A program made the translations under genes and the position numbers. From an uncultured Christensenella sp. (GTDB lineage: Bacteria > Bacillota > Clostridia > Christensenellales > UBA1242), in contig CAYVXW010000002.1 in assembly GCA_964455585.1 (NCBI GenBank), positions 1,734 to 65,733 on the forward strand: a stretch of 64,000 nt of DNA, in the 5' to 3' direction. Of this stretch, positions 1-62,985 are shown piece after piece; the stretch's first letter is position 1; every line of letters begins with the position of its first letter. Under the pieces are notes generated by a model that searched no databases, had not been told where the DNA came from, and was given only the letters and a program-made list of their open reading frames with translations.

Positions 1-3000
1 TAAAGCCGGTTATATCAGTCATTTGGAAACTAGCGGTAGCCGACACTTCACCGTCACCCGAGGTAACCTTTATGGTAACCACGTCGGACGAAGAAAGTGT
101 AAGCACACAAACCTTGCCCGAAACATTTAGGCTAGCCCCCTCTCCCGAAACAATCGTCCAAGTAGCCGATTGGTCGGAGACATTGTTGCTATCTAGTTTG
201 TAACCAAGTTCAATGGTAGAAGCAAAGGATGAAGAAATTCTACTCGATATAACCTTTTCATTAAGGGTTATGTCAATGCTCTCTGCCAATTGGATAACCG
301 AAACTTTCAAGGTGTATTTTCCACTGCCACTAACACCCACTTTTAGTTGTCCGTCGGTGGTTGCACTAAGACCAGTTAGGGTAAATCCTATTTGGTCAGT
401 AGCAGGTGTGCATCCAAATCCGCTATTGTTATTTTCAATATCTAATACTGCCGTCACATCGGTTGGCAATATATTTTTAATAGCAAACTTTATTGCGTTT
501 TTGTCTTTTGTTTTTAGCGTAATGCTTGCTTCGTTACTTATTTTTCCTTCCGTGCCGCCCGTTACCTTATATAGGTCAAACGAGGTTGCTTTTCCAAAAG
601 TACTTTCAATAACGAAGTCTACGCCCACTTCTTCTTTTCCACCATACACAACCGAAACACGCATTGTAGCCTTGCCCGCACCAGTGAATGTAACCTTTCC
701 ATCCGCCGAAACCGAAGCAAACGAGCCACCACTTGCAACCTTATACTCAATAGTTTTGTCCACCATTGAGCCGTCGCCATTGTTTACTATTACTATAGGT
801 GCCACATTCCACTCGGTCAAAGCGGTGTAGACATTGTTTTTGCCTTCCGCCAATTTAATTTGTGCTTCTTTCCAAACATAGAAGTTTAGCGTAAAGGTAT
901 CTTTTCCGCCATTAGGCTTGGTTGCGGTAACCAAAATTGTAACATATCCGCCCTTGCCCTTTAGTGTAATTTCACCCAACTCGTTTACCGAAAGTATATC
1001 GTTTTCGCTTACGCCTCTTAGTGCACTTGTTCTTTGTGTTGCACCTTTGGATGTACGCAAACTAGTTGTCGCAATTGCGTTAGCAGGGCTCTCTACCTCA
1101 AAGGCATATGAAGTGTAGTTGTCGTCACTCGAACTTGGATACAAGACATAATTACTCTTTCCAACCCTCAAGGTTTCCACCTTTTCTTCACTCGCCTCAC
1201 CACCCGAACTTGCACTTAGGTCTAGCGATACAATTTCGTAATCTTTGTTGTTTACAATTGTTATGGTGTCGGTGGCATCATACACGCCACTTTCGTTTTT
1301 CTCGCTTGCAACCTTTATGGTAATAACCACTTGACCATTTCCAACAAACGATACTTTTCCGTTGTCATCAACGGTTGCGACTTTTTCGTCGCTAGATGTA
1401 AATATTGCATTATATGGGCTTAGTGTAGCACCATTGTTTGCAACTGCCGTGTAGCCTAGTTGCAAACTTTCGTTTTCGCCATATTTTGTTACCATATAGT
1501 TGTTTCCTTTTCCGTCAACCGTAATGGTAACGCTTGTTGCCTTATTTAGCACATAAATATCTATGTCTTGAGTTTTTGTTTGGGTTTGGGATGTGGAATA
1601 TCCAAACCTTAGTTTTGCACTTCCGCCACCTACAAACCTAACCCCATTTTCTTTCCACTCAAACACACTCTCGTCGGTGGATATTATGCTTATTTTTGCC
1701 TTGTCCGACTTTAGGTCTATGTCGCTAGGCAAATATGTGTATTTGATAGTTGGGGTCTTTGGTGTAGTAGAATAATCAAAAACATAACTATCCTTTGTTT
1801 CTCCGTCAAACGAAACGCTTGCGGTAAGAGACTTATAATAACCCAATGTGCTTGTTATTTTTCTTGTAATACATTCGTACTCGCCATCCTCGTCGGTGGT
1901 TGAAATCTTGATTGTAATCGCACCTTGAGCGGTAAAGTATAGTACGCCGTTTTCAATAGAAGCAATATCGTTTCCGCCCAAGATTTCAAACTTGACCTCA
2001 AACGCCTTGCTTGAAAGGGCACTGCCCACATTCTCAAAAGTTCTAGCGGTAGTAGGCTTAATACTTGGCGCATAAACTTCTTTGAGGTCAATTCCCAAGC
2101 CGTCGGCTTTGCTACCCATTGCGGTAAGGTGGTTATCTTCCCAAGCACTATCGCCAAGAACGATACTCTTTACACTCTCGGTTGCAACATAATGTATGCC
2201 AATATCGCTTGCACCACTTGCCCCAAGGGTGATTGTGCCCTCGTCGCCGTGAGCCACTTTGAATACTCCAATTTGGTCAACCGACACTACATTATTATGA
2301 TCTATAATATTATATATATTAGTATTATATCTATCTTCAAATATATATTTTTGTCCCGAAACAAGTACGATATCCCTATTTGTTCCGCCACCCAAATCAA
2401 CAACATTTACATCGTCGCTAATCGTAATAACTTCTAGGCTAGCACTAGCCCCGCCGTCTTTGGCGTTTAGCGAAATGGAATATTTTTTGTTTCTTTCAAG
2501 ACCTTTAAGAGTTGCTACGCCGTCCTCAAGCGAAACATACCCGCTTGCACTTGCGTCCACTCCGTCTATCTTTAGCACCACATCCAAATCCAAAAGGGTT
2601 GGTGTAACTAAGTTATTGAACACATAATTAAATTTGTACGAACTATCTTTTGTAACCACTTGGCTTATGCCCTTATTTGTGGAGTTTTCCAAAATAGAAA
2701 TGCTATCTATATATTTGTCTATCTTTATGGATACTTCTTTTTGCATAGTGCCATATGTCACCATAACACTTGATGTGCCACTGCCAACAATATTTAGATT
2801 TGAGCCACTCCAACTTGCGCACGTGCCATTTACACTTACGCTAGGTGTGTCGCTTGAGACGCCATATGTTGGCGCCACACGAGCAATGTTTTTAAGCAGG
2901 TCTATACTCTTATTCTCCATTGTGTCATACAAATAGGTGTATGATAGCGTAACGCCATCAAAGCCCGTAACTCTTCCGTATGTGGAACTAACCACAAACG

Positions 3001-6000
3001 AGTACTCAAGCACTTTGGTTTCTAAAGTAGTCTCTTCCACTGCAACTGCACTTGCATTGTCCAAAGGCAAAATCTTGTATGTAATACTTGCGGTTATTGT
3101 AACACTTCCCGCCTTTTTAAATACAATTACGCCATTGTCAATGGTTGCAATATTTTCGTCGCTAGATTTAAAATTATATGCCAATCTTTCGCCGTCCGCA
3201 CCAAACTCATCAAGTTCCATAAACTTTAGTGTAATGCTACTTGATGCCGTAGAGTGTTCTTGTTTTGTGGATAATTCCACGCTTTCGCCATTTGGCTTTT
3301 GGTCAACTATTTTAATTTCGCCATCCAAAATGCTTTGTTTGTCGCTAACCGAAATTGCTCTTCTTTTAATTGTTTCTTCTTTTCCTTGCTCTTGTCCCGG
3401 CTCGGTGTCGTACTTAAACTTTATGTTTACATCTTTACTAAACGACTTTGTAAACTTATAGTAAACCGAACCCCTGTCGTCAATGCACTCTTCCACGCCG
3501 TCGACCGTGCCCGTAAACTCAATCTTGCTAGGGTCAAGTCTTCCGGTAGAAGAAATGAATGTAAATGGTTCGCCAACTGGCGCAATTATTGTTTGTGACT
3601 CGATATCAACTTCGTACATAACGTCGGTTGTCATATATGATACTACAAATGTTTTTCCACTCTCTAGAGTAAATGTTACTTCAATGCTTTCGCCCGCCTT
3701 GCTAAACACAATTCTATCGTTTGTGCTAGGCTTTTCGGCAACTGAGCCGTCGTCCTTGGTTATTTCCCAACTAATAATTCTTTTTTGGTTTGCATCTAGT
3801 GGCATTGCAATTGGATTTACATATATTGTTGCCCTATTGCCAACAACTTCATTTTTGCCACTTTCTTTTAGTTCAGTTCCGTCCAAACTTATGCCCGTGG
3901 CGATTCTGTTTACCGTAAACTTGATGATATCTAGACTAGTTCCAGTGGTTTTGTTTGTAACCTTTATTTCAAACTCTCCGCCCGCATTAAACTTTAGTTT
4001 TAACCCGTCAACGGTCACCATATTCTCACGCGACGCTTTTGTAACCTCTACTTGCACGCTTTCGTCCAACACAAATGGCTTTGGCGAAATGTTTAGATAG
4101 TCGTTTAGGTCAAAATAGTTAGTTAAAGAGTTTTCCTCGTCAAATACTTTTTCGGTGCTTACGCCCGACTTTTTGGTAATGTTTGCCACCCCATATGTCG
4201 TACGGATTGAAATGGCGCAAGACATTCCGTTAGACTCGCCACCAACAACGCTATTTGCGTACGCCAAAGTAAGTTTTGGACTATATGTGCCCGCGTGGTC
4301 AAAGATTACACAGTTGTCTTCAACCTTTACGCCCTCGCCATATGTAAGAGTTGCATAACCACTTGAAACGTATTCCGGTAGTTTGCCATCACCACCAACC
4401 AACACCTCTAGGTCTAGTTCGGTCTTGCCCGTTTCGTATACGCCACCAACAAGGGTGTAGTCGCCAGAGTTCTTTGGCATAAGTGAAATGGTATTTTGAC
4501 TTAGGCACACAAAGTTAAATTCTTCGTCGCCAAATGTAACTTTGCCCGAGCCGTTTACAGTAACCTTTGCACCTTGAAGTGCAATATCTTTTGTGCTTGA
4601 CACAAATTTTTGGTCGTATGAGGCACTAGATAGCGCCGTGCTACTAGGCTTTAGCATAACGGTTGTGCCTTTTATTATAACAATATCTTTGATGTCTAGT
4701 ACGGTGCTATTTCCCGTATACACCACGGTTATTTTTGCACCATCGCTTTGACCATTTAGCCTTGCCATAACAGTGCAACTGCCCGCTCCACTAAACGATA
4801 GTTTACTGCCATCTAGCGTGGCAACATTTCCGCCACTTATTATATTATAATATAGTTTTGAGTTTCCAGTTGCAGTGGATGGACTGAATGCAAATAGCGA
4901 GCCAAAATCAAACACATTGCTATCCGCAAAGAAATATTCTCCGCTTGTGGTAATTGTTGTTTTTGCACTTTCGCTAACACTTATGCTAATTTCGCCCAAA
5001 TATTTCTTTTGGGTGTCGCCCGTATCGGCATACACTTTTACTTTGCTTACTCCCCCGTGACGGGTGGAAACTATGTTATTTTGGATTGTAATGCTATTGC
5101 CCGTCACCTCAAAGGTGATGTATTCTTTGTTTACGCCGTCTAGCATTGATACATAGTTATACAAGTCGCAAGTGTCATTGTTGTCGTGCGACAAATGGAT
5201 TTCTTTTACATTTAGGCTTGTGGTGTCGTCTGGATGCAAGTATGTTGAATGAATTACAACCTTTCTGCAAATTCCGTCCACCTCAACCAAAATTGTAATA
5301 TCCCCAATGCCACTAAATGTAACCTTGTGCCCGTTAATCAAAGCAATGCCGTCCTCACTACAACTCTCAACCGAAAGGATTGCCGTCGTAGCAGTTGCAT
5401 TGTTTGGGGTTAGGGTATATAAAATTTCAAACTCTTTGGCGGTAGAATAAACCGAAGTTTGGTCGTTTGTTATATCAAAAGTTGTAGACTTATCCTCGCC
5501 CCAAGAGGCTTTTACTTTTAGATTGTCAATGCTTTCTACTAGTCTATTTATTACAACCGTAACCGTTTTGGTAGAGTCTACTTTTCCGTTCTTTAGATAA
5601 CTGACTGTAATTTGTGCCGTGCCCTTGTCTTTTAGGGTAAACACTGGGCTAGTTCCCATTTGCTCCAAACAAGTGCTACCTGATAGCACAAATTGCACAT
5701 CTTCAAAGTTTTCGACTTGCTCGTCGATTAGTGCAAATTTACGCACGCCCTCGCCCGACTTTCGCATATTCAAACAAATGGTGTCGGCATCATCTAGGTC
5801 TCTAGAAATGTCTATTTTTTCAAGGCTTTCGCCAATATACATCACAACAACCGAACTAGTAACACCTTTGTCGGTGCGAGCCGTAACAGTCACTTTTCCA
5901 TAGCCCGAAGCAATAATATTGTCTTTGAAAATTAGTTTTCCCGACTTGACCTCGGCAACGCTATCGTCCGATAGGCTATATGTAATTTCGTCGTTGGCGT

Positions 6001-7276
6001 CCTCTGGCAAACTGCTTGCGTCCAAGGTTATTCCATCACTTCCCGCATATGCAAATTTTGCACCGCCTTTAAAGTCGTTTCCCGTAAAGCCAATTATGGT
6101 AGCCGTACGGTTTACGGTAATGGTTGACGAATCCGAAATAACGCCGTCAACACCCCCGCCACTAATAGTAACCGTCGCCCTTCCGCCACGCTTTACTTTT
6201 AGTTTTCCGTTTTCGAGTTTTATAACTTCCGAAGACAAACCGCTCTCATCTGTGACCACAATATTTAGTTTGCTTGCATCCATATCAAGAGGTGCATAAG
6301 AATATTTTAGAACCAATTCTTCGTCGTTTTCATAATCGGCAAAATTGATATTGGTTGGACTGTCTATCGAAAAAGATATCGAACTAAACTTCCCAAATGT
6401 GGATGTATACTTTTTTGTAACCTCAATGTTGGTGCCCGCAATATATGCCGTAACATTAATTGTGCCCGCTTTACTAAAAGTTATGTTTCCGTTTTCGTCC
6501 ACAGTTGCAACATTTTGCCCCTCAACATCCGCTACTCTATATGATATTTTTTCGCTTGCACCACTTGGGGAGAGTTCGACATTTGGGAAGACAAAACTAG
6601 TTTTGGAAGAAAACTCGTCGCCGTCCTTTCCTTTTTCGATTTCCATACCCGACACATGTGGCTTTGCGCTAATTCTTAGCGACACACTTAGATTTGGATT
6701 GGAGTGCAAATATGCGGTAATGGTGGTTTCTCCTCCGCCTACAACTGTAACAACCCCGCTTTTTGCAACGGTGGCTACACTTGGGTCGGACGAAACATAA
6801 TCTAGTTCTACATCAATAGCGTCGCTAGGAACCCAAACGACATTTAGTTTGTATGTATCGCCCACATACATATTTTTTTGCGTTTCAGAAAGGCTTAGGC
6901 TATGAACCCTTGCGCTAGTAACCCTTACCTTGCAATACGCCGTTTTGGTGCCATTTTCTTTGGATTTTGCGTGGATATATGTTTCGCCAAAATCTACCCC
7001 CACAATCTTTCCCTTTGAATTGACCGTTACAATATTTTCGTTATCGCTCCAAAACTCAACTTCTTTGTTATTTGCAAGAAGAGGAAAAACATTTACTTTG
7101 ACTTCGCCCGAAACACTATCCGCGGTATCCTTTTGCAAGACGATTTCGTCTTCGACAAACTCAAGGTATTCAACATAAAGATAGGTGGACATATTAACAA
7201 TATTTCCACTAAGCAACAAAATGCCAAGCACAATAAGTGGCATTAGTATCAATGTAAATATCATTGTCTTTTTCAT
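1..7276 (-). CDS. Giant surface protein with tandem Ig-like (Big_2-type) domains. Only the 5' part is present (2,425 codons); the gene runs off the left edge.
   Basis: The ORF is absent from the supplied track because it has no stop inside the window. Hand translation of the minus strand from ATG 7276-7274 (AGGAGG at 7290-7285) gives MKKTMIFTLILMPLIVLGILLLSGN, a signal or anchor. Further on it reads NIVTVNSKGKIVGVDFGETYIHAKSKENGTKTAYCKVRV and DPSVATVAKSGVVTVVGGGETTITAY, which are Big_2-like repeats. The left edge in the same frame (codons 2-4, 5-7 ...) reads SSDVVTIKVTSGDGEVSATASFQMTDITGF. No minus-strand fragments of this frame appear in the track, as expected if the frame is open throughout. 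The + ORFs at 213-7178 are its antisense shadows. Confidence 0.85.
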   Translation of the reverse strand, partial: MKKTMIFTLILMPLIVLGILLLSGNIVNMSTYLYVEYLEFVEDEIVLQKDTADSVSGEVKVNVFPLLANNKEVEFWSDNENIVTVNSKGKIVGVDFGETYIHAKSKENGTKTAYCKVRVTSARVHSLSLSETQKNMYVGDTYKLNVVWVPSDAIDVELDYVSSDPSVATVAKSGVVTVVGGGETTITAYLHSNPNLSVSLRISAKPHVSGMEIEKGKDGDEFSSKTSFVFPNVELSPSGASEKISYRVADVEGQNVATVDENGNITFSKAGTINVTAYIAGTNIEVTKKYTSTFGKFSSISFSIDSPTNINFADYENDEELVLKYSYAPLDMDASKLNIVVTDESGLSSEVIKLENGKLKVKRGGRATVTISGGGVDGVISDSSTITVNRTATIIGFTGNDFKGGAKFAYAGSDGITLDASSLPEDANDEITYSLSDDSVAEVKSGKLIFKDNIIASGYGKVTVTARTDKGVTSSVVVMYIGESLEKIDISRDLDDADTICLNMRKSGEGVRKFALIDEQVENFEDVQFVLSGSTCLEQMGTSPVFTLKDKGTAQITVSYLKNGKVDSTKTVTVVINRLVESIDNLKVKASWGEDKSTTFDITNDQTSVYSTAKEFEILYTLTPNNATATTAILSVESCSEDGIALINGHKVTFSGIGDITILVEVDGICRKVVIHSTYLHPDDTTSLNVKEIHLSHDNNDTCDLYNYVSMLDGVNKEYITFEVTGNSITIQNNIVSTRHGGVSKVKVYADTGDTQKKYLGEISISVSESAKTTITTSGEYFFADSNVFDFGSLFAFSPSTATGNSKLYYNIISGGNVATLDGSKLSFSGAGSCTVMARLNGQSDGAKITVVYTGNSTVLDIKDIVIIKGTTVMLKPSSTALSSASYDQKFVSSTKDIALQGAKVTVNGSGKVTFGDEEFNFVCLSQNTISLMPKNSGDYTLVGGVYETGKTELDLEVLVGGDGKLPEYVSSGYATLTYGEGVKVEDNCVIFDHAGTYSPKLTLAYANSVVGGESNGMSCAISIRTTYGVANITKKSGVSTEKVFDEENSLTNYFDLNDYLNISPKPFVLDESVQVEVTKASRENMVTVDGLKLKFNAGGEFEIKVTNKTTGTSLDIIKFTVNRIATGISLDGTELKESGKNEVVGNRATIYVNPIAMPLDANQKRIISWEITKDDGSVAEKPSTNDRIVFSKAGESIEVTFTLESGKTFVVSYMTTDVMYEVDIESQTIIAPVGEPFTFISSTGRLDPSKIEFTGTVDGVEECIDDRGSVYYKFTKSFSKDVNIKFKYDTEPGQEQGKEETIKRRAISVSDKQSILDGEIKIVDQKPNGESVELSTKQEHSTASSSITLKFMELDEFGADGERLAYNFKSSDENIATIDNGVIVFKKAGSVTITASITYKILPLDNASAVAVEETTLETKVLEYSFVVSSTYGRVTGFDGVTLSYTYLYDTMENKSIDLLKNIARVAPTYGVSSDTPSVSVNGTCASWSGSNLNIVGSGTSSVMVTYGTMQKEVSIKIDKYIDSISILENSTNKGISQVVTKDSSYKFNYVFNNLVTPTLLDLDVVLKIDGVDASASGYVSLEDGVATLKGLERNKKYSISLNAKDGGASASLEVITISDDVNVVDLGGGTNRDIVLVSGQKYIFEDRYNTNIYNIIDHNNVVSVDQIGVFKVAHGDEGTITLGASGASDIGIHYVATESVKSIVLGDSAWEDNHLTAMGSKADGLGIDLKEVYAPSIKPTTARTFENVGSALSSKAFEVKFEILGGNDIASIENGVLYFTAQGAITIKISTTDEDGEYECITRKITSTLGYYKSLTASVSFDGETKDSYVFDYSTTPKTPTIKYTYLPSDIDLKSDKAKISIISTDESVFEWKENGVRFVGGGSAKLRFGYSTSQTQTKTQDIDIYVLNKATSVTITVDGKGNNYMVTKYGENESLQLGYTAVANNGATLSPYNAIFTSSDEKVATVDDNGKVSFVGNGQVVITIKVASEKNESGVYDATDTITIVNNKDYEIVSLDLSASSGGEASEEKVETLRVGKSNYVLYPSSSDDNYTSYAFEVESPANAIATTSLRTSKGATQRTSALRGVSENDILSVNELGEITLKGKGGYVTILVTATKPNGGKDTFTLNFYVWKEAQIKLAEGKNNVYTALTEWNVAPIVIVNNGDGSMVDKTIEYKVASGGSFASVSADGKVTFTGAGKATMRVSVVYGGKEEVGVDFVIESTFGKATSFDLYKVTGGTEGKISNEASITLKTKDKNAIKFAIKNILPTDVTAVLDIENNNSGFGCTPATDQIGFTLTGLSATTDGQLKVGVSGSGKYTLKVSVIQLAESIDITLNEKVISSRISSSFASTIELGYKLDSNNVSDQSATWTIVSGEGASLNVSGKVCVLTLSSSDVVTIKVTSGDGEVSATASFQMTDITGF

Positions 7277-8913: not shown

Positions 8914-9635
8914 AGGCCTGCCTCGGTTATTTCCTCAAATATTTTTTCTAGGTCAAAACTCTTATTTTTTCTTTCTTCTTCCAAATTGAAGTTTTCTACT
9001 AGTTTTCCTTCGTTTATTATTCCAACGTTATCACAAATCTTTTCGACTACATCAAGATTGTGGGAGGAGAATAGCACGCTATTGCCCTTGCCCGCATACT
9101 CTCTAATAACATTTTTTACTTGGTTCATAGTGGTGGGGTCAAGACCCATCATAGGCTCGTCTAGCACCCATAGTTTTGGCTCGTGAATAAGAGAGCCAAT
9201 AAGACAAATTTTTTGTTTCATTCCGTGGGAATAACTAAAAATTTGATTGTCCAAACTCTTTGTAATAGAAAAAAGTTTGGCATAGTGCTCTAGTCTTTTT
9301 GCCTTGGTTTCTTTGTCCACGCCATAAAGGCTACCCATATAGTTTACATACTCCCTGCCCGTCAATTTTTCATAAACCGAGTGGTCGTCGGGAACATAGC
9401 CAATAGTCTCTTTGGCTTTTGCGGAATCCTTGCTAATATCAAAGCCATTTACAATTATCTTTCCGCCATCAAAAGGAAGTATTCCAACAATACTTTTTAT
9501 AGTAGTAGACTTGCCCGCGCCATTGCAACCAACAAGCCCCATAACTGTGCCATCTTCTACAACAAAACTAATTCCCTTTGCCGAGTATTTTTTTGCACCT
9601 TTGTACTTTTTTGAAAAGTTATTTACCTCTAGCAT
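8910..9635 (-). CDS. ABC transporter ATP-binding protein
   Basis: Motifs present are Walker A GCNGAGKST, a signature-like SHGMKQK, Walker B LWVLDEP and H-loop SSHN. GGAGGGG lies upstream of the ATG. Confidence 0.9.
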   Translation of the reverse strand: MLEVNNFSKKYKGAKKYSAKGISFVVEDGTVMGLVGCNGAGKSTTIKSIVGILPFDGGKIIVNGFDISKDSAKAKETIGYVPDDHSVYEKLTGREYVNYMGSLYGVDKETKAKRLEHYAKLFSITKSLDNQIFSYSHGMKQKICLIGSLIHEPKLWVLDEPMMGLDPTTMNQVKNVIREYAGKGNSVLFSSHNLDVVEKICDNVGIINEGKLVENFNLEEERKNKSFDLEKIFEEITEAGL

Positions 9636-9864
9636 AACCCCTCCACATAAAATTATTTAATTAGCAATAAAAATCTAGCAACATTTGTCCCACTGGAATT
9701 GCGTTTTTCTATTATTATGCACAATTATACTACACAATTTTTGTATTTTTTGCAATGTTTTGGGGCGTTTAGCCCCAAAATTCAACATTTTGTAATAATT
9801 TGTCGATAATATGGGTCAAAATATAAGGGGTTTTCGCCCCTAATAATATATTATATTAATAACT

Positions 9865-9897
9865 ATTATATACCGCACCCCCCCCCCCTATTGTCAA
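9865..9897 (-). promoter_or_regulatory. Candidate sigma-A promoter with a G11 tract inside the spacer (predicted phase-variable)
   Basis: The minus strand reads TTGACA (9897-9892), then a 21-nt spacer a-ta-G11-tgcggta (9891-9871), then TATAAT (9870-9865). Both hexamers match consensus exactly. It lies about 230 nt upstream of the ABC ATPase start. Confidence 0.55.
9878..9888. repeat. C11/G11 homopolymer tract
   Basis: Direct count in ...taccgca-CCCCCCCCCCC-tattgtcaag... This is the longest G/C homopolymer I noticed in the window. Confidence 0.95.
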
Positions 9898-9942
9898 GTA
9901 CTTGTGGATAAGTTTATAAAAAATCCTTGGCTTTCATCCCAT

Positions 9943-9980
9943 TTTTGACACGATTTGCCCAATTTCGACAATTTTCGACA
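9943..9980 (+). promoter_or_regulatory. Helically phased direct repeats TTT(C)GACA, a candidate OmpR-family response-regulator operator
   Basis: The copies are ttttGACA (9943-9950), atttcGACA (9962-9970) and ttttcGACA (9972-9980). The GACA cores sit at 9947, 9967 and 9977, giving spacings of 20 and 10 bp. They lie upstream of the operon that encodes the regulator. Confidence 0.3.
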
Positions 9981-10080
9981 ATATTTTCTAAAGTTCCCTC
10001 TTCTCCAAAGTTGCAAAAGTTTACAAAACTTTTACATTTAAAATAGACTTTTTTTACATTTATTATGTTACAATAAGAAT

Positions 10081-11031
10081 ATGAAAGAAAAATTTAGGAA
10101 AATGTATGAGTTTTTGAAAAAGCCAACTTTGTGGTTTGAACTTATGTGCTATGGGGTATTTGTAGTTGCATCCGCCCTTTGCATACTTTTTCTATGTCTT
10201 GGTGGCTTTGAGGCAATTTTGCCAGTGACATATAGCATAATGGGTGTAACATTTTTCTATTGTACCTATCTATTTGTGCGTTATGACTATAAGGCAATAA
10301 AGTCGTATTTTAGGTCGCTTAAGGTGCGATTATCGCAAAAAAGTAAACTGCTAGATGGTCTATTTAATAACATCTACTTTAGAACCAACCTTGCCACCGC
10401 CTTTTCCCTTTTGCTAGGAATTGGGTTCGTTTGTTACAACGCCTATGCGGGGCTAAAGTTTCACTCGGTTTGGAACGGAAGTATTTCTATTTATTATAGC
10501 TTTCTTGTAGTCATTAGAGTGCTATTTTTGATTTACGAAATGGTGCTAATTAAGCATAACGAAATGGGAAATAGTCAAAAAGACCAATTGCGAGCAAAAA
10601 TGTTTAGGTTTGAGGGGATACTTCTAATACTTCTAAACATCGCACTTATAGCCCCCGTGACCATTCTTGCCCTTTCCAAAAAGCAAGTCAACCTGCCTAT
10701 GTGGGTGGCAATAGTCAATGCGTGCTATGCTTTTTATAAAATAATTGTTTGCGTATATTCATTTGTTAAAACTAGGAAAAACACTGCACTTTCCATAAAG
10801 GGCATAAAGAACCTAAACCTAACAAGTGCCATAATTACAATGCTATCGCTTGAAAACACTATGATACTAACATTTTCCGAAAGCCCTAGCGATATGCAAT
10901 TGCTTATGATTTTTAGTGCACTTGGCACGATGATAATAAACTTGGTCATTGCAATTAGAACATATCTTATTGGCAATGCCGAAGTCAAAAAACTTAAAGG
11001 AGAAAACTATGACGAAAATACTAATTGTTGA
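10081..11031 (+). CDS. Polytopic membrane protein of unknown function
   Basis: The 316-aa ORF has multiple hydrophobic helices. Its 3' end overlaps the response-regulator start by 23 nt. No clear SD precedes the ATG. Confidence 0.65.
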   Translation: MKEKFRKMYEFLKKPTLWFELMCYGVFVVASALCILFLCLGGFEAILPVTYSIMGVTFFYCTYLFVRYDYKAIKSYFRSLKVRLSQKSKLLDGLFNNIYFRTNLATAFSLLLGIGFVCYNAYAGLKFHSVWNGSISIYYSFLVVIRVLFLIYEMVLIKHNEMGNSQKDQLRAKMFRFEGILLILLNIALIAPVTILALSKKQVNLPMWVAIVNACYAFYKIIVCVYSFVKTRKNTALSIKGIKNLNLTSAIITMLSLENTMILTFSESPSDMQLLMIFSALGTMIINLVIAIRTYLIGNAEVKKLKGENYDENTNC

Positions 11032-17816: not shown

Positions 17817-18989
17817 TTACATTCCCCCTTTTTCGTTTTCTTGTGAGTAGTCTTTTGGAGCCTTTCGTGGCTTTTCGGCAATAGAGGCTTGGACCTTGTC
17901 CCTAACATAAGATTCAAAATCTGAAATGGCGTCTACCGCCTCACTAATCTTTTCATAAACTTTTTGGGACTCTTCGTCCATTGCACTATTTATGGACCTT
18001 CTTGCATCCCTAAGCCTTTTTCTTTTTATATTTGTATCCATCTTTAAACTTGGCGAAAAGAACGCACAAGCAGGAACAATTTCGGGATAAGATATTCCCG
18101 TTGGAGAAACCTTTCCCGCATATGGGTTTGCTTGAGAACTAAGCACCATCCAAACCGCCGAACTCTTTGCGGTGTCTGGCAAAGCCATTCCCGCGCCATA
18201 AGTTCCGCCACCACTTGCAGGCAAGGTCAAGCACATTACATCGTGGTATTCTTGTTTTCCCTCGTCGTTTAGACGAATGGTTCTGTCCATCTTCATTGAT
18301 TGATTGTGAGTGTGTCCAATTACGCACATATCGGCATTGTCTACATTTCTAAGAAGCCTAAATAGCCCGTCAATGTTGCTAATTCCCGTGCCGTGGTGAG
18401 TGGCAATCCTCACGTGAAACTTTCCGTCTTTTGAAAGTGGTTGTCTCAAAACCAAATCGGTGCTAGCATAATATGGAGCAAAAGCGTCCCCTAGCCCCGC
18501 CACATCGGCAGCCATCTTTATGGAACTCACCCCTACACTCTTTCGCATTCTATCCTCGTGATTTCCGCTATGCAAAACCACAATTTTACCCGTGTCGTTT
18601 AGGTCTTTTAGTGCTTCGGCAACTTCGCTATTGCCCTTTGCAACCTTTAGCACGTCCGAAAAAACATCCAATTGTTGTTGTGGGTTTAATATATCCTCAT
18701 ATGGGTCGGACTTGCTTCCAACAATCGCCGTATTAAGCGCATCGCCAAGCATAAAAATAACGGCATTTTCTTGTGAGCGAGCGTATCTTAGGGTGTCTAG
18801 AAGCCCCTTGATATCAAAATCACACGAGCCTATGTGCATATCGCTTAAAAAGCACACTTGCAATGTGTCAAACTTGTCGGAATAATCCTTTGTAATATTT
18901 TTTATGGTTGCGTTATTGCTATTATAAGCCGTGTCACCAACCAAGCCTTTGTACTGCTTGTCCAAAATCTTTAGTACATCTTCCCTCAT
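17817..18989 (-). CDS. Calcineurin-like metallophosphoesterase
   Basis: The full motif set is present: FLSDMHIG (DxH), MLGDALN (GD), HSGNHEDR (GNHE), THHGTG and VIGHTHNQS (GHTH). The likely start is MREDVL (ATG 18989, GGGAGA 7 nt upstream). The track start at 19004 is also possible. Confidence 0.8.
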   Translation of the reverse strand: MREDVLKILDKQYKGLVGDTAYNSNNATIKNITKDYSDKFDTLQVCFLSDMHIGSCDFDIKGLLDTLRYARSQENAVIFMLGDALNTAIVGSKSDPYEDILNPQQQLDVFSDVLKVAKGNSEVAEALKDLNDTGKIVVLHSGNHEDRMRKSVGVSSIKMAADVAGLGDAFAPYYASTDLVLRQPLSKDGKFHVRIATHHGTGISNIDGLFRLLRNVDNADMCVIGHTHNQSMKMDRTIRLNDEGKQEYHDVMCLTLPASGGGTYGAGMALPDTAKSSAVWMVLSSQANPYAGKVSPTGISYPEIVPACAFFSPSLKMDTNIKRKRLRDARRSINSAMDEESQKVYEKISEAVDAISDFESYVRDKVQASIAEKPRKAPKDYSQENEKGGM

Positions 18990-19021
18990 TTTGTAATCTC
19001 CCATAAATTCTAACTATCCCC

Positions 19022-19049
19022 ATTATATCACCAATTTCCAAAATGTCAA
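19022..19049 (-). promoter_or_regulatory. Near-consensus sigma-A promoter for the metallophosphoesterase pair
   Basis: The minus strand reads TTGACA (19049-19044), a 16-nt spacer ending in TGa, then TATAAT (19027-19022). Confidence 0.6.
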
Positions 19050-24087: not shown

Positions 24088-24216
24088 ATCCATAAAGAGT
24101 GTGCGAGGGACAGCCCCGATGACCACACAGCAACCTGCGTCCCCCCGCAAGGTGCTAAAGGCTGACCGATGGGACTCATAATATACCTCACCCCATCGGT
24201 TTCGATGGGATTTTTT
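24088..24216 (+). promoter_or_regulatory. SAM riboswitch (S-box/SAM-I-like core) with terminator/antiterminator platform
   Basis: The core reads AAAGAG-TGTG-c-GAGGGA-caGCCCCGATGA-c-CACA-GCAACC-[tgcg-tcccccc-cgca]-aGGTGCTAAAgg. The terminator is CCCATCG-gttt-CGATGGG followed by T6 (24192-24216). The alternative 9-bp helix pairs ACCGATGGG (24165-24173) with CCCATCGGT (24192-24200). Confidence 0.75.
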
Positions 24217-32573: not shown

Positions 32574-32774
32574 GCTCCACCTTCTCTTTTAAGATAAGCA
32601 ATGAAGAAAAAATATCTTAAAAGAATTTACACACTTAGTGTTACCAATTCAACTAGTCGTCTTAGTAACACATAAGTATTATAACTCATAATTTTCTAAA
32701 ATTAAAGTAAATTTGAGAGAGAAAAATGTGTTTTTTTGTCGAATTTTGTCGAAAAACACAAAAATGGGGAGATT

Positions 32775-52663: not shown

Positions 52664-55600
52664 TTATTTGTGTCTTGGGTATGTGCCCGAAACATCATAT
52701 CCGCCATTTTCTTCCTTTTCCATAGTCGATTTTAGGTTGTCAAGTGCGGTATTTGTATTTCCGCCCGCCGAACTACCCTCAACAAGGGTACCAAATTCGC
52801 CCGATGCTAAGTTAAACGAATCTCCATTGAAGATGTAGTACGAGTTTGTAACTGTTGCAATACGAGAAATTGCATTAATGTCAAGTTGTTGGTGTACGGT
52901 GAATGTGTAATTTAGAACCACATAGCATTTTTCTACTGTTGCACTTCCGCCCGAACTTGCGGAAACTATTCCCGCAACGATAATGGAACTTGCATTCTCG
53001 CCCGAATTAGAAGTTGTGTGCTCAACCACAACTTTTGCAAGGGAATAGCAAGTAGAAATTGTTACATTTGTACCCGAGCCAACTTCGCACATAATTGCAC
53101 CAAGAACGCCCGACCTACTTTCAGTACTATCTTCTATTCCATCGTCGGTTACAGTAAGAACAACATTTTCGTCAACATAACATTTAGAAATTGTTATGTT
53201 GCTATTGGTGCCACCAACTACTTCCTCGGACATAACCACAATTCCGGCTACATAGTTTGCATAAATTTTGCCAACATAAAGTTCGCCCGTCGTATCAACA
53301 ATTGCACCAAAACTACAATTTTCGATTACCGAACCGCCACTTGTTTTGCCTACAATTCCGCCTGCTTTGGAGGTCTTGTTGGTCAAGGCTTCGATATTTA
53401 GTTTTGCTACAGAATTTTTGATTGTACCCATATTGGAAGCAACCACGCCACCAACCAAGATAGCAATTTGAGTTTTTACCTCAAGTACAATTTGGGCTTT
53501 CATACTCTTTGAGTAGTCGATATTGCTTGCACCCTCGTCTACCCTATTGCCGTTTTTGTCGGTTAGATATGGAAGAACATTTACGCTATCAAGTGTGCCA
53601 TAGTTTCTAATAGCAACGCCCGATACCATATATTCCGAAACATCACTACTGTTGGTGTAGTCGATATTTACTTGGAAGTTGGTGTTCCTAATTGTTCCAT
53701 AGTTGTCAAGAATGAATGACATATATGAAGTCTTGTCGTTCTCCTCCTTAACAGATGGGGTGATGTTGTAAATATAGTGATTGTCACCATCAATTACACC
53801 CGAGAAACTATCTATCATTGTCCAATTTGGATTGTAATTGGTTTGACCCATAGAAGAAGACTCAATCTTTATATCTTTTTCTAGTTTGTAATCGCTAGTT
53901 GGGTAAATTCTAATGTTATTTAGATTAGCGTAAGTAGCAATTGCATATGGAATGTATTCCGTGCCATTTCCGGATGCAAATAGCGTCATACTAACATCCG
54001 TCAAGTTTGGACGATAAGTGCCCGACTTGTATGCGCCCTTGTCGCTAGAAGCCGTGTCGTAAGCGGTAGTTGTAAGACCAAATGTATACTCGCTTGCAAC
54101 CGCCCTTAGTTGATAACTTGTTGGGGTTGGTTCGCCCTCGCCCGATTTTAGGATAATCAAATCTTTTACATAAATAGTAAATGTTTCGCCTTGGGTATAG
54201 TCGTAACTAATTCTTCTTTCCTCAACAGTATTGTCATCTAGATACTTGCTATCAAAATTACTATTTTTTGTAGTATTTTGGTCAAAGTCTGGAGTTGTGC
54301 CATTAAGTGGAGAAGTGATGTGTGCCGATTTTAACCAAGCGTTTAGAGCCTCGGCATCTAGGTTTTCTACCTTGTAGGTAGTTTCCAAAATGATATTGTA
54401 ACCGGTAGAAATATGGTCTTTGTTGGATAGCGTCCAAGAAAGTGTTCCAGTTGCACTATCATATTTTGCATCCACTGGTGCGGATGGAATAGATATGTCT
54501 AGTTTTGCGCTATAACTACTGCTTACAAATGCTCTATTGGTGCTAGTCTCGCCCAAGCCGTCGGTAGTTTCAATTGTTCCAATTGCTTGCACAAATGCAC
54601 AAATTTCGGAACCGCTTGAACTTAGTTTGCCAATAAGGTTGTTCATCTTGAATATCATTTCGTTATCATTTACTTCGGTAAACTCGTTGCTTGCCCAAGT
54701 CAAGCCTTCTTTAGTTTCAACATCCGACCTTTCTGGATATTTGATTTCTACAGTTGCCGTGCCATTTACGCCTTTGTAGATTGTGTAAATGTATTCAGAA
54801 TATGTGCCGTCGGAATTCTTTACATAGAACTTGACTCTATATCCCGAAGCGTTAGTTTGAAGTGGCCAATAAATTCTACTTTCTTGCGAAGCGGAAGTGT
54901 TTGCCACGTTCTTGAGTTCTGGAGTTTGCAACTTGGTGATATAGAACTCTTTGTTGCTACTTGCTAGATAGAACCTATCGCCATCCTTAATGCTATCGGT
55001 CGAGCCCTCAGTTCCACTATACTTAATAACAATATCGTGGTTGCCCGCGCCAAATGTTACGGTGTCGGCAGATGAATTGTAAGTTTGGAAGTTGTCCACA
55101 GTTAGTTCGGTAAAGTACTTGTACGAAAGAGTTGATGTGCTATCAATCGTTACACTGTTTCCGTCTATCTTTAGTTCAGGAAGAGTAACGGATTGACCTG
55201 CCGTCTTGTCCGCCTCGGTTCCCCAACCGAATACACCATCCTCAACTGTTGGCTCAGGGTCGGCAATTCTTGTAACTTCAAGACTTGCGGAGTACGAACT
55301 ATTTAGATATCCGGCATCAAATTTTGCAATAGCCTTTACTCTAATATTGGTTGTACCCAAAATGCCGTCATAAATCTTTGTTGTTGCAGTTGTGCTAGTA
55401 TCAATTTCTTTTTCTTTTGTGCCCCATTGATACGAAATGGCATATTTGCTTACATTGCCAGTGGTGTCGTTGGATTTTCCGTTCCACCATAGGTTGCCTT
55501 CTTTGTCAACTCCTAGCCCAGTAGGAATTGCAAGACGCAAGTAACTACCCGACCAAATCTTATTCTCCTCGTCCTCAACCTTGTGGGTCTTAACGGTGTC

Positions 55601-58600
55601 GGAATTAAAGTAATTCTTTGAGGTTACATATGTAGTTGCCCCGCCGTCTGCCGAAGGAACTTCGTCTAGCCTTGTTGCTATAATTTCTATGCTATACATA
55701 AAGCCACTTTCGTTTAGTGATGGGTCGTCTGGCATATCAAAATAGGTTTGGTTATAAACAATTGTTGATGTGTTGCACATTTCAGGGTTTGCATTGGCAT
55801 CGGCTCCTACGGCAATCTTTTTGATTGTGACAATGTATGCATTTGCAAATGGAACGGCGTTCCACTCAAACATACCCGCAGTGGCATCCGTCTTACCCAA
55901 CCAGTATGGCAAGCCGTCTTGTGTGGATTTTGCACTAGTTGTGCCAAGTTTGTAGGCGTATACAACTTCGGATATAGGGCTATCAACAACACCTCTGCCG
56001 TTTCCTATTTCTTGTTCGTAAATTGCATATCCGCCCTCGGTGAAGTTTAGGTTGTCCGAAAGGGTTATTTCGCCCGTTCTTTCGTCGTCCACTCCCGAGT
56101 TGATTTCTTTAACCATTCCCAAAAGGGCAGTTGCGTTATTCTTTACATAAGACTTAACTTCCGCTAGCCTATCCTCTTCAAACTCAAATTCATCAAATAC
56201 GCTATCGTCTTTTTGGTCGCTTTCGGCAAATTTAATTTCGGCAAGCAATAGTTTAGTAGCATCTAGTTCCGTCCAATTTTTGTTTGCGTTCTCTAGGCTT
56301 TCGGCTTTGTAAAGTGGTCCATAAACCTTGATAAGCGAACTAACCGAATTATCGTTTGGAGTCCACTTGAATGCACTTTCTTCCACGCTTGTTTCGCAAG
56401 TATGAAGGATTGTCATTGTGTCGCTAAACATATATGAGTTGCTATTTAGCAAGTAAACTGTATCGCTTCCGTCGGTTGCAGGTGTACTATCCTTTGTTCC
56501 CATTGCTAGGATGAATAGTCTATAGATTTTGTCAAGGTCAACCTTGGTTGTTTCGTTATAGAACATTTCCTTTACATCTTTTGAATACTTGTAGCCGTCG
56601 CCCACATTAGGGTCTTTGCTTTCGCCGTCTAGGTCACCAACCGTCACTTCGGCATAAGCCACGCTTTCGCTTCCGGCAGTGATAGCCGACAAATAGTAGT
56701 CTTTGTGATAAGTGAATGGGTCTTCGTCCCCAGTTGCACCTTGATTTGCAATAATGGATAGTTCCCATAATGCTTTGCCTTTACTAATATCGTTTACGGT
56801 GTATTTAGGTGCACTTGGGTCGCCACTAGTTGGATTGTCCTCACCATCTAGTTCGTCGTCCAAAGTCATAATTTCTTCGTTTTCATCGTCACCAGTGTTA
56901 TCCTCTTCCACTAGAACTTTGTCATACCAACTCTTTGGAGTGGTTAGTTTGTAGGTTTTTAATGTTCCCGACTCAATGCCGTTTAGGACATTGTCGCCAC
57001 CAACTGCACTAATGCTAATGTCATAGTAGCCGGCGGTATACTGAATGCCCGCAGAGTTGGTTACCGTATTCGACACATCGTCACTATCGACATCGTAAGT
57101 GGTAGAAACCGAAACATCGTACAAGAACTCAAATTTGGCAACCGAACTACCACTTTCTACAACCTCTCCTTGTGAGTTAAGAAGCCTTACTTCGCTAGGA
57201 GTATCTATTGTTTCAACGCCATTGATGTTTAGTCTAATTTTGTAGAAGTGTTCGGTAAAGATACCGTCAAATGTAGAGTTATCTGACTCGCCATTGAGTG
57301 CCATATCTTTTATGTAGTCATAGAAAGTAGTATAATCTATAGTGCCCTTTTGGCTACCCGCAATTTCGGTAACCACTTGGACTCTAGCCTCTTCGCCGGC
57401 GTCCTCGCCTCCGCCCTCGCTAAACTCTACACCGTCTAGATATTTAAGCATTTCGGTGGTTGAAATTGTCCACGAAAGTTTTCCTTCTTTTACCTTGTAG
57501 GTGCCTAGCATACTAGGTCTATATGCTTTTGTAGAAGAATCGCTTTGAGCCAAAGACGATATCATTGCAAGTTTTGGATTGGTAATTGCGGTAACCGAAA
57601 TATCCCAATATCCGCCATTCAAAGTGCCAATTTTGCTAGCATACTCCGAAGCATTAAAGTTTATATCCGAACCATTTTTATAGATTATTACGATATTCTT
57701 CCCATCGGTAATTGCAATTTTGTAAGTCACTGCCGATGGCAATGCACTCCAAGCAAGTTTTCCGTTGGAAACCGATGGTGTGGTGCTATTTGCAATATAT
57801 TCCACTTTACAATCGTTGGTCACAAGTGAATAGTCGCTATATAGCAATCCAAATGATTGGCTTTCATTTCCCATAGCCATCATTCTTATGTCGTACTTTC
57901 CAACCTCTACATCGTTTGTTAGTTCGTAGTATTGCTTATTGTCGGTGCTTGATAGTTTTGCTTCTTTGATTTCTTTGCCACTTTGGTCAAAGAACACAAG
58001 TTTTAATTCATATCCCGTTTTGTCTTTGTTTGGGTTGTCCCAATTTAATATAGGCTTTCCAACACCGTTTCCGCTTTCGTCATATAGTTGCATATTAAGA
58101 GCGGTAGGAGCCATAAGTTTTTTGAACCTAAACTCGCTAGATAGTTCGCTACATAGCATACCCGTTTTTTGAGTGATGATGCTAATCTTGTAGGTCTCGC
58201 CCGCAACATATGCAAATGTAGTTTCGCCCGTTTCGGACTCATCGTCCCCACTTGCAAAAACTTTTACATCGCTAATGCCGTCGCCCTCGGAAATAACCGC
58301 AGGCAAGGTGATGTCGCCGTCGCCCGAGTAATTGAACGACACAACCAATTGATTTAGATTGTTTCTAATTTGAACAAAGTAACTTCCGCCCTCAACTGCA
58401 GATGCCCATACAAGGCTTCCGTCTTTTGATTGGATAGACAATACTTTTTCGGATTTTGCAAATGTATATACGGTTGACTCTTCCGAACTTAGAACCTTTC
58501 CGCCATTTCCAATAAACATAATTGTGGTGCCATAGGTGCCATTTTCGTCGTAGCCCTCTAGCCCCCTTATGTCAATTTCGTATACTCCGCCGTCAATTGT

Positions 58601-61600
58601 TGCAAATGCACTATACTCGCCAAATGGAATTTCTTTAACAATGGCCTCTACCGAAGTGTCGATTTCGATTGTTGGGTCGCCCTCCTCGCCTTCAACACTG
58701 GTTACGGTCTTGTATTTGTTGATTGTAATCCTTACGCTTGTTGGCTCAAAGCCTTCAAATGTTTCGTAGTAGCCATATGCAAACTTTCCACTATTCGACA
58801 CTGTTACTAGGTCGGTAGACGCAGTTGCAAGTTTGACAACTTGTACACTAGCACTATTGCCATCTAGATATGGGTCGCTAGATGTGAGTGTTTTTATTTT
58901 GAATGTATGCCTGCCTGCATCCAATGCGTCTATCGCATAAACAAATTTGTTTATTGAACTATCGTAAACAAAATCGGTAGATTGAGTATATGTGCCCTCG
59001 CCATCCACATCTTTATAGATTGAACAAGTATAATCGTTGCCACTCTTTTCTACTTTTAGTTTTGTTGTGGTGGATTCGTCAAGCACAATTTCAAACATTG
59101 AAACCCCACTAACATATGCCCATTGCAACTTTTCGTTTACCATAGTTATGTCGCTAGCCTCACCAACCTTGGTAAGCCTCTTTACTCCCGACATACTGCT
59201 TGAAATGCATCCATCAAGCACTGCCCTTATGGTTAGGTCAAAGTCGCCTGCAGGTAGCCCATAGAAATCAACGCCATAATCAAATGCAACGTTATCTATT
59301 TCGTAGTTGTTTCCAATGCTGGAAATTAGGTTTCCGTCCTTATATAGTTTGAATGTCAAGCCTTGGTTAGGGCTTGTGTCGTCCTCGCTTGCTTTGTATT
59401 CAAAGGTTGCTCTTCCGTTTTGGGCTTTAATTTCTCCAACGGTAGGAAGTTTTGTAATTGATACTTCTTTTTCGTTTTCTGCTAGCCAAATTCCAGTAGA
59501 AACAAAGTCAACCGAAGTTTGGATTTTTATATCATAAACACCGGCGTCCATTTCGGCAAACGACAAATATTTTTCGCCCGACAAGGTTTGGATATCCTCG
59601 TCCGAAACGGCACTGCCGTATTCGCCATTCGATGTTAGTTTATAATAAATTGCGTATGTAATTCCGTCGTCATAAGTCCACACAACACCCTCGGCGTCAC
59701 TGCTTACTCTAGCACCCACACGCCCGTCTCTTACTTTGATTTCGATAGATGGGTTATTTGTGCCCGTAGCAACCGACGAACTATCCAAAATGTATGGATT
59801 TTCGCTACTAACGCCACTGGTTTGACTATTTTCGCCACCAGCCACAATTGTTATTGTATAATCGCCAACTTCTAGTCCGCTAGGCAACTCATACTCGGTG
59901 CCATCAACTGTTTTTGGGGTCTCGCCGTCAAATATTGCCTCAGAGCAAATAAGGGTGTATTCGGAGCACTTATTTACACTTGACCAAGTAATCTTTGGTG
60001 TGGTTCCGCTTGCGTTTCTTGAAACGTTTACGGTTGTCAAGACTGTGGCATATATTTTGTCGCTAGCCGTGCTTGCAAAGTAATTTGGATGAGTTTCCCA
60101 AATTTCCATTGCAACCGTCTTTCCCTCATAGTCGCTCAAAACGCTTCTAATATTTAGTTTGTAGCCCCTGCCGTCTTCATTTGTGGTGCCACTTGAATAT
60201 GCTACCGATTTTTGTGCAACCCTAGTGCTATCAACATAGAAGTTTATAACATAGGTAATTCCGCTAACGGTTGAGGTTGACGACCAAGATAGTTCGCCCG
60301 AAGGGCTCATTTTAAGCCCCGTTGCCACTCCCGAGCGATTGAACGAACTGCTAACTTTTACTGAGTCAATAATTCCCGCAACGCCCGAACTTGATGGACT
60401 GCCTATTACATAAGCCTCAATGTTTATTTGTTCGCCACTAATGTAGTCGATTAGTTTGTTGGTGCTATCTTTGCAATTTAGTTGGGTTAAGTCAATTGTA
60501 ACCTTTCCGCCACTAACCGAGCCTCTTGTCTCTTCCGAAACAACATCGCCACTAGGGGTCTTTAGGATAACAACATATGTTTCGCCAACTTTGTTAAATA
60601 CAAGTTTTGTCGAATCCTCAAGGGTCATATTGGTAATTGAACTTCTTCTATTGAAGTTTACATTGCTTGAGCCCGATGAGGAAATAATTGCATTTGAACC
60701 CGACAATGATGTATTGTCATTTTTGTCGGTAATGATAGAGTAGTAGAATACATCACCCGCACTCAAATATCCATCTATTTCTTCCGTCTCAATGCCCACG
60801 ATTTCTTTTGACGCTTGTCTAGATAATAAAACTCTGACAACATCAAACAAACTAAAGGTGTATTTGCCACTTACTTTGGTTAGCGGAACAACCCCGTCCT
60901 CTAGGTCGCCACCGTCTTTTAGGCTAACCTCTTGGGCGTTTCCGTTTTTGGAAAGTCTAATGGTGTAGTTCTTTATTTCCTCGGCACTACCACCATTTTG
61001 ATATGACACAGGCGCAAACGAAATTGTGCCGTTTGAAGAAATTTGAGTAGCCGTTGTGTCTTTTAGGACTTGGCAAGTATAAACTGGATTTTTGGAAACC
61101 TCGGTTGCCGTCAATGTGTTTGCACTTTCTCCAAAGTCACCCACCATTTTTGCATAAATTTGATAGTTGCCCGCACTTAGCCCTGCTTTGCTAATATCGC
61201 ACGATGCGGTCTCGCTAAATACATATTTTGAAAGGTCCAAGTTCTCGGTGTTGACAAAGAAGAACTCAATACCCTTTATTCCATTTGCTCCGCCAACAGT
61301 TATTATGTTGTTGCTAATGCTATGCGAAACAACTGGGTTGTCGCCAGGGATTTCGCCCGAGGCGTTGTCGGCGTTATAGATTTTTCCTAGTCTAGTATAG
61401 AAAAGGTTTTCCCATTCGCCTGCAATTGTTCTTTCGCTATTTCCTACAAGCCTTACATAAACAATTTTTCCCGCCGTAATATCTACTTCCGGCTCGCTTG
61501 TAATAAACACGGTGATAGTGGTTGTTTTGTCGCCAAGAACCAATTGTCCAGTTTTACTTGGAGAAATTTCCTTTAGCCTATCGGAAGAAAGTTCGTTTGA

Positions 61601-62920: not shown

Positions 62921-62985
62921 TTCTACACCTTTAGTCATTTTATTTAAAGTCTTTGTGGGGAGTCGCCCCACCTTTCTCTTGAGTT

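Follow-up and report, generated by a model that had tools for sequence, protein, structure and literature searches.

An uninterrupted run of 11 G residues separates two perfect promoter hexamers upstream of an operon for an ABC transporter and a giant protein in an uncultured Christensenella sp. (contig CAYVXW010000002.1). The whole stretch of 64,000 nt that was analyzed is referred to here as the window. The locus raises the question of whether the operon is phase variable, that is, whether slippage in the G run changes the distance between the hexamers and with it the transcription of the operon, as was proposed in a sequence-only reading of the window. We consider a promoter whose activity depends on tract length to be the best interpretation of the locus, and give it a probability of about 0.75. 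The architecture of the promoter, its conservation, the length polymorphism of the tract and the contrast with tract-free relatives were all observed directly; the dependence of transcription on tract length, the ON length and the start site are what we infer from them.

Promoter Architecture and the Downstream Operon

On the minus strand, the promoter consists of tac, TTGACA, ata, G11, tgcggta, TATAAT and agtt, in this order (Table 1), and the interval 9900–9861 reads tacTTGACAataGGGGGGGGGGGtgcggtaTATAATagtt. The spacer of 21 nt with a G11 tract between two consensus hexamers, as given in the sequence-only reading, was thus borne out letter by letter. The same reading called the run the longest G/C homopolymer that it had noticed, and indeed it is the sole G/C run of at least 7 nt in 64 kb, the next one being a C6 at position 24141. 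Because its spacer is 21 nt, the promoter is absent from a standard promoter scan with spacers of 16–18 nt. Perfect TTGACA-N13-23-TATAAT pairs occur twice in the 64 kb, both strands included, against 0.28 expected from shuffled sequences. The promoter feature is real and not a product of chance. The second perfect pair is located at 19022–19049 on the minus strand, just 5' of an ORF at 17817–19004, and has a spacer of 16 nt.

Table 1. Position of the promoter elements, leader structures and operon genes in the window
Feature	Position	Strand	Remarks
Conserved block TCCACAAGTAC	9898..9908	-	Immediately 5' of the -35; possible regulator or UP-type contact
-35 hexamer TTGACA	9892..9897	-	6/6 matches; invariant in the window, L001, L004-L010 and L116-L118
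Promoter spacer, 21 nt (ata + G11 + tgcggta)	9871..9891	-	Flanks conserved clade-wide
G11 homopolymer (C11 on the plus strand)	9878..9888	-	Hypermutable element in the spacer; 9-12 in the clade
Overlapping alternative -10, TATATA	9867..9872	-	Counterpart of TATATT in L012 and L004
-10 hexamer TATAAT	9865..9870	-	6/6 matches
Predicted 5' leader, ~223 nt	9636..9858	-	Start placed ~7 nt downstream of the -10
Terminator-like hairpin GGGGcgaaaaCCCC then TTATATTTT	9826..9841	-	~17 nt after the predicted start
Second leader hairpin GGGGC-N5-GCCCC	9762..9776	-	Disrupted in L001 (GAGGC), weak in L116 and L004
Proximal pair TTGCAA (9755-9750), 20 nt, TATAAT (9729-9724)	9724..9755	-	Alternatively 17 nt to TAGTAT
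ABC transporter ATP-binding protein, 241 aa	8910..9635	-	DrrA/ABC-2 type; first operon gene
Polytopic permease-like protein, 535 aa	7306..8913	-	Overlaps the ATPase gene by 4 nt
Giant protein, >2425 aa, Big_2 Ig-like domains	2..7276	-	Last operon gene; extends past the window start

Other readings of the same sequence were examined and rejected. The window promoter contains no extended -10 (TGn). No alternative -35 lies at 17–18 nt from TATAAT, where the hexamers CAATAG and ACAATA have 0–1 of 6 matches. Promoters of the MerR type have a spacer of 19–20 bp with a dyad-symmetric operator and a merR-family gene next door; this class was ruled out, since the spacer of the window promoter is a G run without a dyad and no merR-family gene is adjacent.

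The placement of the promoter upstream of the ABC/giant-protein operon also proved right: it lies approximately 230 nt 5' of the ABC ATPase gene. The permease-like protein has no Pfam match, and some of its homologues carry PF09847 (12TM_1). The gene for the giant Big_2 protein, which has a hydrophobic segment at its N-terminus, follows the permease gene after a gap of 29 nt, in which no terminator was predicted. The order ATPase, permease, giant Big_2 protein is retained in every relative with a long enough contig. The giant protein is predicted to be surface exposed and to be a product of the contingency type. Divergent genes on the plus strand encode a 316-aa protein, an OmpR-type response regulator and a histidine kinase. 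It should be mentioned that the window contains a second giant ORF (3435 aa, 52664–62971, minus strand), which has no G/C tract of at least 7 nt anywhere near it.

We compared the intergenic region with that of relatives whose permeases are 75–84% identical to that of the window. Most of the region is unalignable; a block of roughly 45 nt, TCCACAAGTAC-TTGACA-nnA-G(n)-TGnGG-TATAtaAT, is almost invariant in those same relatives. The flanks of the G run within the spacer are kept across the clade, with ATA, GTA or GCA on one side and TGCGG(TA) on the other. The block TCCACAAGTAC is invariant in all clade relatives and partly retained in L018 as TCCACAAATGCTTGAC; together with the TTG of the -35 it forms a 10-bp palindrome, CAAGTACTTG, at 9895–9904. 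A search of genome contigs for the flank pattern with a free gap gave no matches. In the metagenome contig L002 (1035–1079), both flanks of 12–13 nt were found exactly, around an unrelated AT-rich spacer of 20 nt and in unrelated surroundings, and this was set aside as a chance match between strong promoters.

According to the mechanism that we propose, this sigma-A-type promoter would be the main promoter of the operon for the ABC ATPase, the permease and the giant Ig-like protein, and a slippage-prone G tract would make up most of its spacer. Replication slippage would add or remove Gs, and each change in their number would shift both the distance and the rotational phase between the hexamers, altering the usability of the promoter for RNA polymerase. 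A clonal population would in this way come to contain cells with differing expression of the operon: ON, weak or OFF. For the allele of the window, in which the spacer is 21 nt to TATAAT or 19 nt to an overlapping hexamer, TATATA, the mechanism predicts an OFF or very weak state.

Variation of the Tract Among Close Relatives

Relatives were gathered by exact-protein look-ups and by a search for permease homologues, and are represented by independent assemblies at several distances. The exact look-up of the window ATPase protein returned one other contig, L001, and that of the window permease (P0001) returned no exact record. The ATPase protein of L001 is identical to that of the window; its tract is G10 against G11. 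Across 14 assemblies of the clade of the window, the tract varied from G9 to G12, these lengths being the consensus of short-read assemblies, which are error-prone in homopolymers and give one length each. G9 was found in L117, G10 in L001, L005, L007 and L008, G11 in the window and in L006, L009, L010, L116, L118 and L119, and G12 in L004. The sequence-only reading had named a constant tract length across strains as an observation that would speak against a switch; the comparison was made, and the tract is not invariant.

Variation was also seen at a much shorter distance, in strain groups made up of contigs with an identical permease from different sequencing runs. The P0004 group (7,606 aligned columns, 18 SNP columns) contained one indel column, located in the tract, which was G10 in three contigs and G11 in three others. 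The P0032 group (5,604 columns, one SNP column) contained two indel columns, both in the tract, with G8, G9 and G10, and the P0050 group (3,788 columns, no SNPs) a single one, again in the tract, with C8 and C9. Thus, in these three near-identical groups indels were confined to the tract over 3.8–7.6 kb each. Lengths of G9 and G10 were found in the P0012 group, and of G11, G9, G11 and G11 in the P0067 group. In total, the tract was polymorphic in six of seven strain groups, the two-member P0007 group being without a difference. No other site of the locus changes nearly as much as the tract. Three contigs (L014, L102 and L119) start exactly at the tract, as is expected if the reads are heterogeneous there.

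A different kind of variant was found in L100 and L101 of the P0012 group. In bases 1–28 of these contigs, tttatacgacttgattatataaaacttac replaces the G-tract promoter, and the shared sequence resumes just past the -10. Either the promoter has been replaced in these two contigs, or the sequence reflects an assembly join.

Recurrence of the Tract in Uncultured Clostridia

A scan based on the permease alignment, with one genome per species, yielded 80 loci, all from metagenome-assembled genomes of uncultured Clostridia, with permeases of 34–74% identity to the query. For 73 of them the position of the ATPase gene could be established, and these formed the species-level comparison set. A G/C run of at least 7 nt was present within 450 nt 5' of the ATPase gene in 33 of the 73 loci. 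In 21 of the 73, a run of 7–15 nt lay inside a -35/-10 pair with at least 10 of 12 consensus matches; the hexamers flanking the tracts were picked by our own scoring rule, so that the statistics are indicative only, and the lineages are related, so that the counts are of non-independent events. The -35 of these 21 species-level relatives is TTGACA-like. The same layout of -35, tract and -10 was found in seven further strain groups.

Examples of this layout are TTGACA-tcttaaat-G9-TATAAT in L054 (17 nt), TTGACG-ttgtc-G13-TATAAT in L017 (18 nt), TTGACA-aat-C9-gcaact-TATAAT in L040 (18 nt) and TTGACA-aaaatc-G15-TATAAT in L076 (21 nt). Six lineages have a poly-C run on the sense strand. The position of the run is conserved and its strand is not, which argues for a role in spacing or mutability and against a strand-specific RNA or protein signal. 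Runs of at least 8 nt are 89-fold denser in the 300 nt 5' of the ATPase gene (31 in 21.6 kb) than elsewhere in these loci (8 in 494 kb).

It may be asked whether the tract is merely a fixed neutral or structural run, the length differences being homopolymer errors of short-read sequencing. This view is favored by the origin of all comparison sequences from short-read metagenome assemblies, by the errors that Illumina instruments tend to make in G runs of at least 9 nt, by contigs that break off at the tract, and by L074, which shows an implausible G34 and a G16 at a contig end. The consensus, however, represents the majority length, and yet it differs by up to 2 nt between runs in otherwise identical sequence. 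A neutral run would moreover gain point mutations, whereas at least 21 diverged lineages retain an uninterrupted run, on one strand or the other, in the same functional place, and interrupted ones occur only in promoters fixed at 17 nt. Nor can an 89-fold local enrichment be an artefact. We therefore regard this explanation as very unlikely.

In the L074 contig just mentioned, G34, G7, C7 and G16 follow one another in bases 1–80, 5' of the ATPase gene; these runs are either a poly-G artefact of two-color chemistry or an extreme tract. For the internal tracts, such an assembly artefact was ruled out by their unique flanks in more than 30 independent assemblies.

Besides the tracts within spacers, we found a second form of the locus, in which the tract lies 20–30 nt 5' of a normally spaced promoter (L105-L108, L027, L065, L082 and L093). 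The tract of this form is still polymorphic in L105-L108 (C8 vs. C9). In this form, it could act only via upstream contacts.

Some loci carry tracts at other sites: a G9 that precedes the TTG start codon of the ATPase gene by about 9 nt in L063 (~2272), a G10 inside the permease ORF in L094 (~3744), and G8–G9 runs further downstream, about the giant-gene region, in L043 (~5725), L086 (~7187) and L092 (~6512). These tracts may serve as translational or frameshift switches.

Spacer Lengths and the State of the G11 Allele

Functional -35/-10 spacers are 17 ± 1 nt long. In the tract-bearing promoters (n = 29, extra strain groups counted), spacers ranged from 13 to 21 nt with a mode at 17–18 nt: one of 13 nt, three of 15, two of 16, five of 17, seven of 18, three of 19, three of 20 and five of 21. 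The tract-free strong promoters (n = 15) comprised two of 16 nt, eight of 17, three of 18, one of 21 and one of 23. A spacer of 16–18 nt was therefore found in 14 of 29 tract-bearing vs. 13 of 15 tract-free promoters (Fisher p = 0.02, with related lineages in the sample). In three lineages the G run is interrupted and the spacer is exactly 17 nt, namely L033, L045 and L068 (cgggggagggtagtctt, caggggggtaggattga and gacgggagggggcataa, respectively). They look like decayed tracts locked ON.

When tract lengths were shuffled among the flanks, the total spacer length varied somewhat more than in the real promoters (permutation P ~0.04), and a weak signal of compensation was seen in the correlation of flank length with tract length (Pearson r = -0.35, p = 0.07). 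As an indication, such a pattern would be expected of a hypermutable spacer in which selection keeps the total near 17–18 nt.

The clade of the window itself departs from this optimum. Its spacers to TATAAT are 19–22 nt (G9–G12, 14 assemblies); spacers of 17–18 nt were never seen, and neither G7 nor G8 was observed among these 14 assemblies. Spacings of 20–21 nt were found in the L018 and P0012 lineages. By the rule of 17 ± 1 nt, on which the sequence-only reading also relied, an OFF or weak promoter is the likeliest state of the G11 allele as assembled, an assignment that we hold with somewhat better than even confidence. The loss of 3–4 G, which that reading proposed as the way back to 17–18 nt, is one conceivable means of turning it ON. 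That the canonical ON length is unseen in the clade fits poorly with a simple one-step switch, and may point to an additional factor or to the use of another -10.

A candidate for the latter is contained in TATATAAT, where a second hexamer, TATATA, overlaps TATAAT; it had been missed in the sequence-only reading. The spacer to TATATA is 17 nt at G9, 18 nt at G10 and 19 nt at G11, and both G9 and G10 were observed in the clade. In the sister lineage L012, a TATATT lies exactly 17 nt from TTGACA. TATATA should be weak, since its last position is not the T of the consensus.

An extra factor would be provided by an activator: a protein bound at TCCACAAGTACTTGACA, which holds the palindrome described above, would aid the polymerase at the -10, and the tract would set the phase between this protein and the -10, as reported for the poly-C tract at Bordetella fim promoters, so that 19–22 nt may include an active state. 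Several observations agree with this. The 11 nt 5' of the -35 are invariant clade-wide amid a diverged region, the clade spacers gather at 19–22 nt with none at 17–18 nt, the palindrome would be centered at about -41.5 at G11 if transcription starts 7 nt past the -10, and lineages of the second form have a tract 20–30 nt upstream, which is polymorphic in L105-L108 (C8 vs. C9). The perfect TTGACA at the -35, however, is usually missing from activator-dependent promoters, and the Bordetella fim type is defined by having no functional -35, whereas that of the window matches in 6 of 6 positions. The palindrome is not retained outside the clade, being absent in L012 and having two mismatches in L018; no candidate activator was found; and most lineages with the tract in the spacer are at 16–19 nt, which matches plain spacing. 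On balance, activator phasing appears unlikely, and direct dependence of the promoter on spacer length is preferred.

Leader Structures and the Proximal Promoter Candidate

The predicted leader has a fold z-score of -2.2. An Rfam scan of 9550–10150 revealed no family; its single match, at chance level (E = 0.79), lies outside the leader. Two GC hairpins had been described in the leader by the sequence-only reading. That of the form GGGG-N6-CCCC was found where it had been placed, at 9827–9840, and the GGGGC-N5-GCCCC hairpin exists as well, but had been placed 8 nt off, at 9770–9784 (correct position in Table 1). The first of them is the core of the terminator-like hairpin, which has 5 pairs, -8.7 kcal/mol and a broken T run. 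Its stem is retained in L001 and L116-L119 and missing in L004, L005 and L012; possibly it acts as a leader attenuator in the closest clade only. As conserved RNA structures, both leader hairpins were rejected: their stems are either invariant or broken, show no compensatory change, and are absent beyond the closest clade.

The leader also contains a pair of hexamers nearer to the start codon, with a perfect TATAAT, and it is conceivable that this proximal site drives the operon, the distal G-tract promoter being inactive or producing a short RNA that ends at the terminator-like hairpin, which with TTATATTTT lies close past the predicted distal start. Conservation, however, favors the distal promoter. 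L116 and L117, the nearest relatives, have ACGATT in place of the proximal -10, and the entire proximal pair is missing in L005-L010, whereas the distal block is invariant. Nor is the proximal spacer of standard length, being 20 nt to TATAAT, and the hairpin is short, confined to the clade and followed by the broken T run. We find it hardly probable that the distal promoter is a decoy, and of the explanations considered here this is the one to which we give the least weight; transcription from the G-tract promoter remains the preferred reading.

Comparison With Known Phase-Variable Systems

Promoters with a slippage-prone spacer have been reported from several bacteria. In Neisseria meningitidis, the poly-G tract of porA and the poly-C tract of opc are said to be G/C homopolymers of about 9–13 nt between the -35 and -10, with strain-variable lengths, in which slippage changes the spacing and thereby the transcription of a surface protein; the window promoter shares this design. 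The Neisseria tracts belong to single genes of Gram-negative pathogens and reportedly have lengths that straddle the optimum, whereas here the host group is uncultured Clostridia, the target is a three-gene operon, the design is found in dozens of species, and the clade of the window lies 2–5 nt above the optimum. In the vlp genes of Mycoplasma hyorhinis, a homopolymer in the -35/-10 spacer likewise reportedly controls surface proteins, in a lineage related to Firmicutes, and the ON state is said to be at 17 nt; the vlp tracts, however, are poly-A and serve a lipoprotein gene family of a wall-less pathogen.

The promoter of hifA/hifB in Haemophilus influenzae reportedly has a TA repeat in the spacer of an adhesin promoter, also in a divergent intergenic region, and hif expression is said to be graded by repeat number. 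Its dinucleotide repeat is common to two overlapping divergent promoters, whereas in the window a single promoter holds the tract, and a region of its own serves the divergent two-component operon. The poly-C tract of Bordetella pertussis fim2/fim3 is said to set the distance from an upstream protein contact to the -10, and is therefore the closest model for activator phasing and for the lineages with an upstream tract; it reportedly requires BvgA and has no consensus -35, whereas the window promoter has a perfect -35 and no activator was identified for it. Poly-G tracts of variable length, about 7–12 nt, are also reported near the promoters of the tpr surface-protein genes of the spirochaete Treponema pallidum, where long tracts are said to lower transcription; they lie near the transcription start and not between consensus hexamers.

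Phase variation in gut commensals has been mapped mostly as invertible promoters and methylation switches, and most known switches based on repeat slippage are those of Gram-negative pathogens and mycoplasmas. The closest parallel from a gut commensal in the literature searched is that of Bifidobacterium breve, in which slippage in a G tract controls a large surface structure, the pilus, with tract lengths that are heterogeneous in the population and with equivalents across the genus (PMC9187656). That tract is intragenic and acts by frameshift (PMC9187656), in contrast to the tract of the window, which lies in a promoter and would act on transcription. Our full-text searches revealed no description of the operon or of promoter tracts in these taxa.

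The window promoter agrees with the class represented by porA, opc and vlp in its architecture, in an uninterrupted tract of at least 7 nt, in polymorphism between strains and in the type of its target, the surface location of which is predicted. Very probably, then, it is a slippage-driven expression switch of this known type, and the core of the sequence-only reading is upheld to the extent that sequences can show it. The kind of switch is established; the novelty lies in the host group, in the operon under its control, and in how widely and persistently the design occurs among species. A broader proposal would be that a selectively maintained 'contingency promoter' follows the operon through dozens of species of gut Clostridia in at least two positional forms, and that the 19–22 nt spacers of the clade may mean a long-spacer promoter assisted by a factor; for this proposal we hold the chances to be evenly balanced.

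If this broader proposal is true, phase variation of a giant surface protein by slippage would be common among gut Firmicutes, a trait not described in them to date. In many uncultured Clostridia, the giant Ig-like surface protein and the ABC transporter that accompanies it would be expressed to a stochastically varying degree, which would bear on colonization, on evasion of immunity and phages, and on strain-level heterogeneity. About 30 natural promoters with G/C tracts of 7–15 nt and spacers of 13–22 nt, together with matched tract-free relatives, form a ready test set. A practical consequence concerns metagenome-assembled genomes, where the tract breaks short-read contigs and may be mis-called.

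Other Conserved Elements Near the Promoter

A 20-nt block at approximately 10016–10035, reading AAATGTAAAAGTTTTGTAAA on the minus strand and two TTTACA repeats on the plus strand, adjoins the start of the divergent 316-aa gene. It is kept in all relatives that have the two-component system, despite diverged flanks, and is probably a promoter or operator of the divergent operon.

Two direct TTGTCGA boxes, 10 nt apart, are located at 9965–9981 on the minus strand, about 70 nt upstream of the -35, and similar boxes were also found in L004, L005 and L012. An inverted copy lies in the operon leader (9800–9806, match on the plus strand), and in L116 it forms a perfect palindrome, TTGTCGACAA. The same tandem pair occurs elsewhere in the window, at 32736–32752 on the plus strand, directly 5' of an ORF for an XRE-like HTH protein (ATG at 32776, end at 33203). 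The TTGTCGA boxes look like candidate operators of a shared regulator, possibly the adjacent OmpR-type regulator or the HTH protein.
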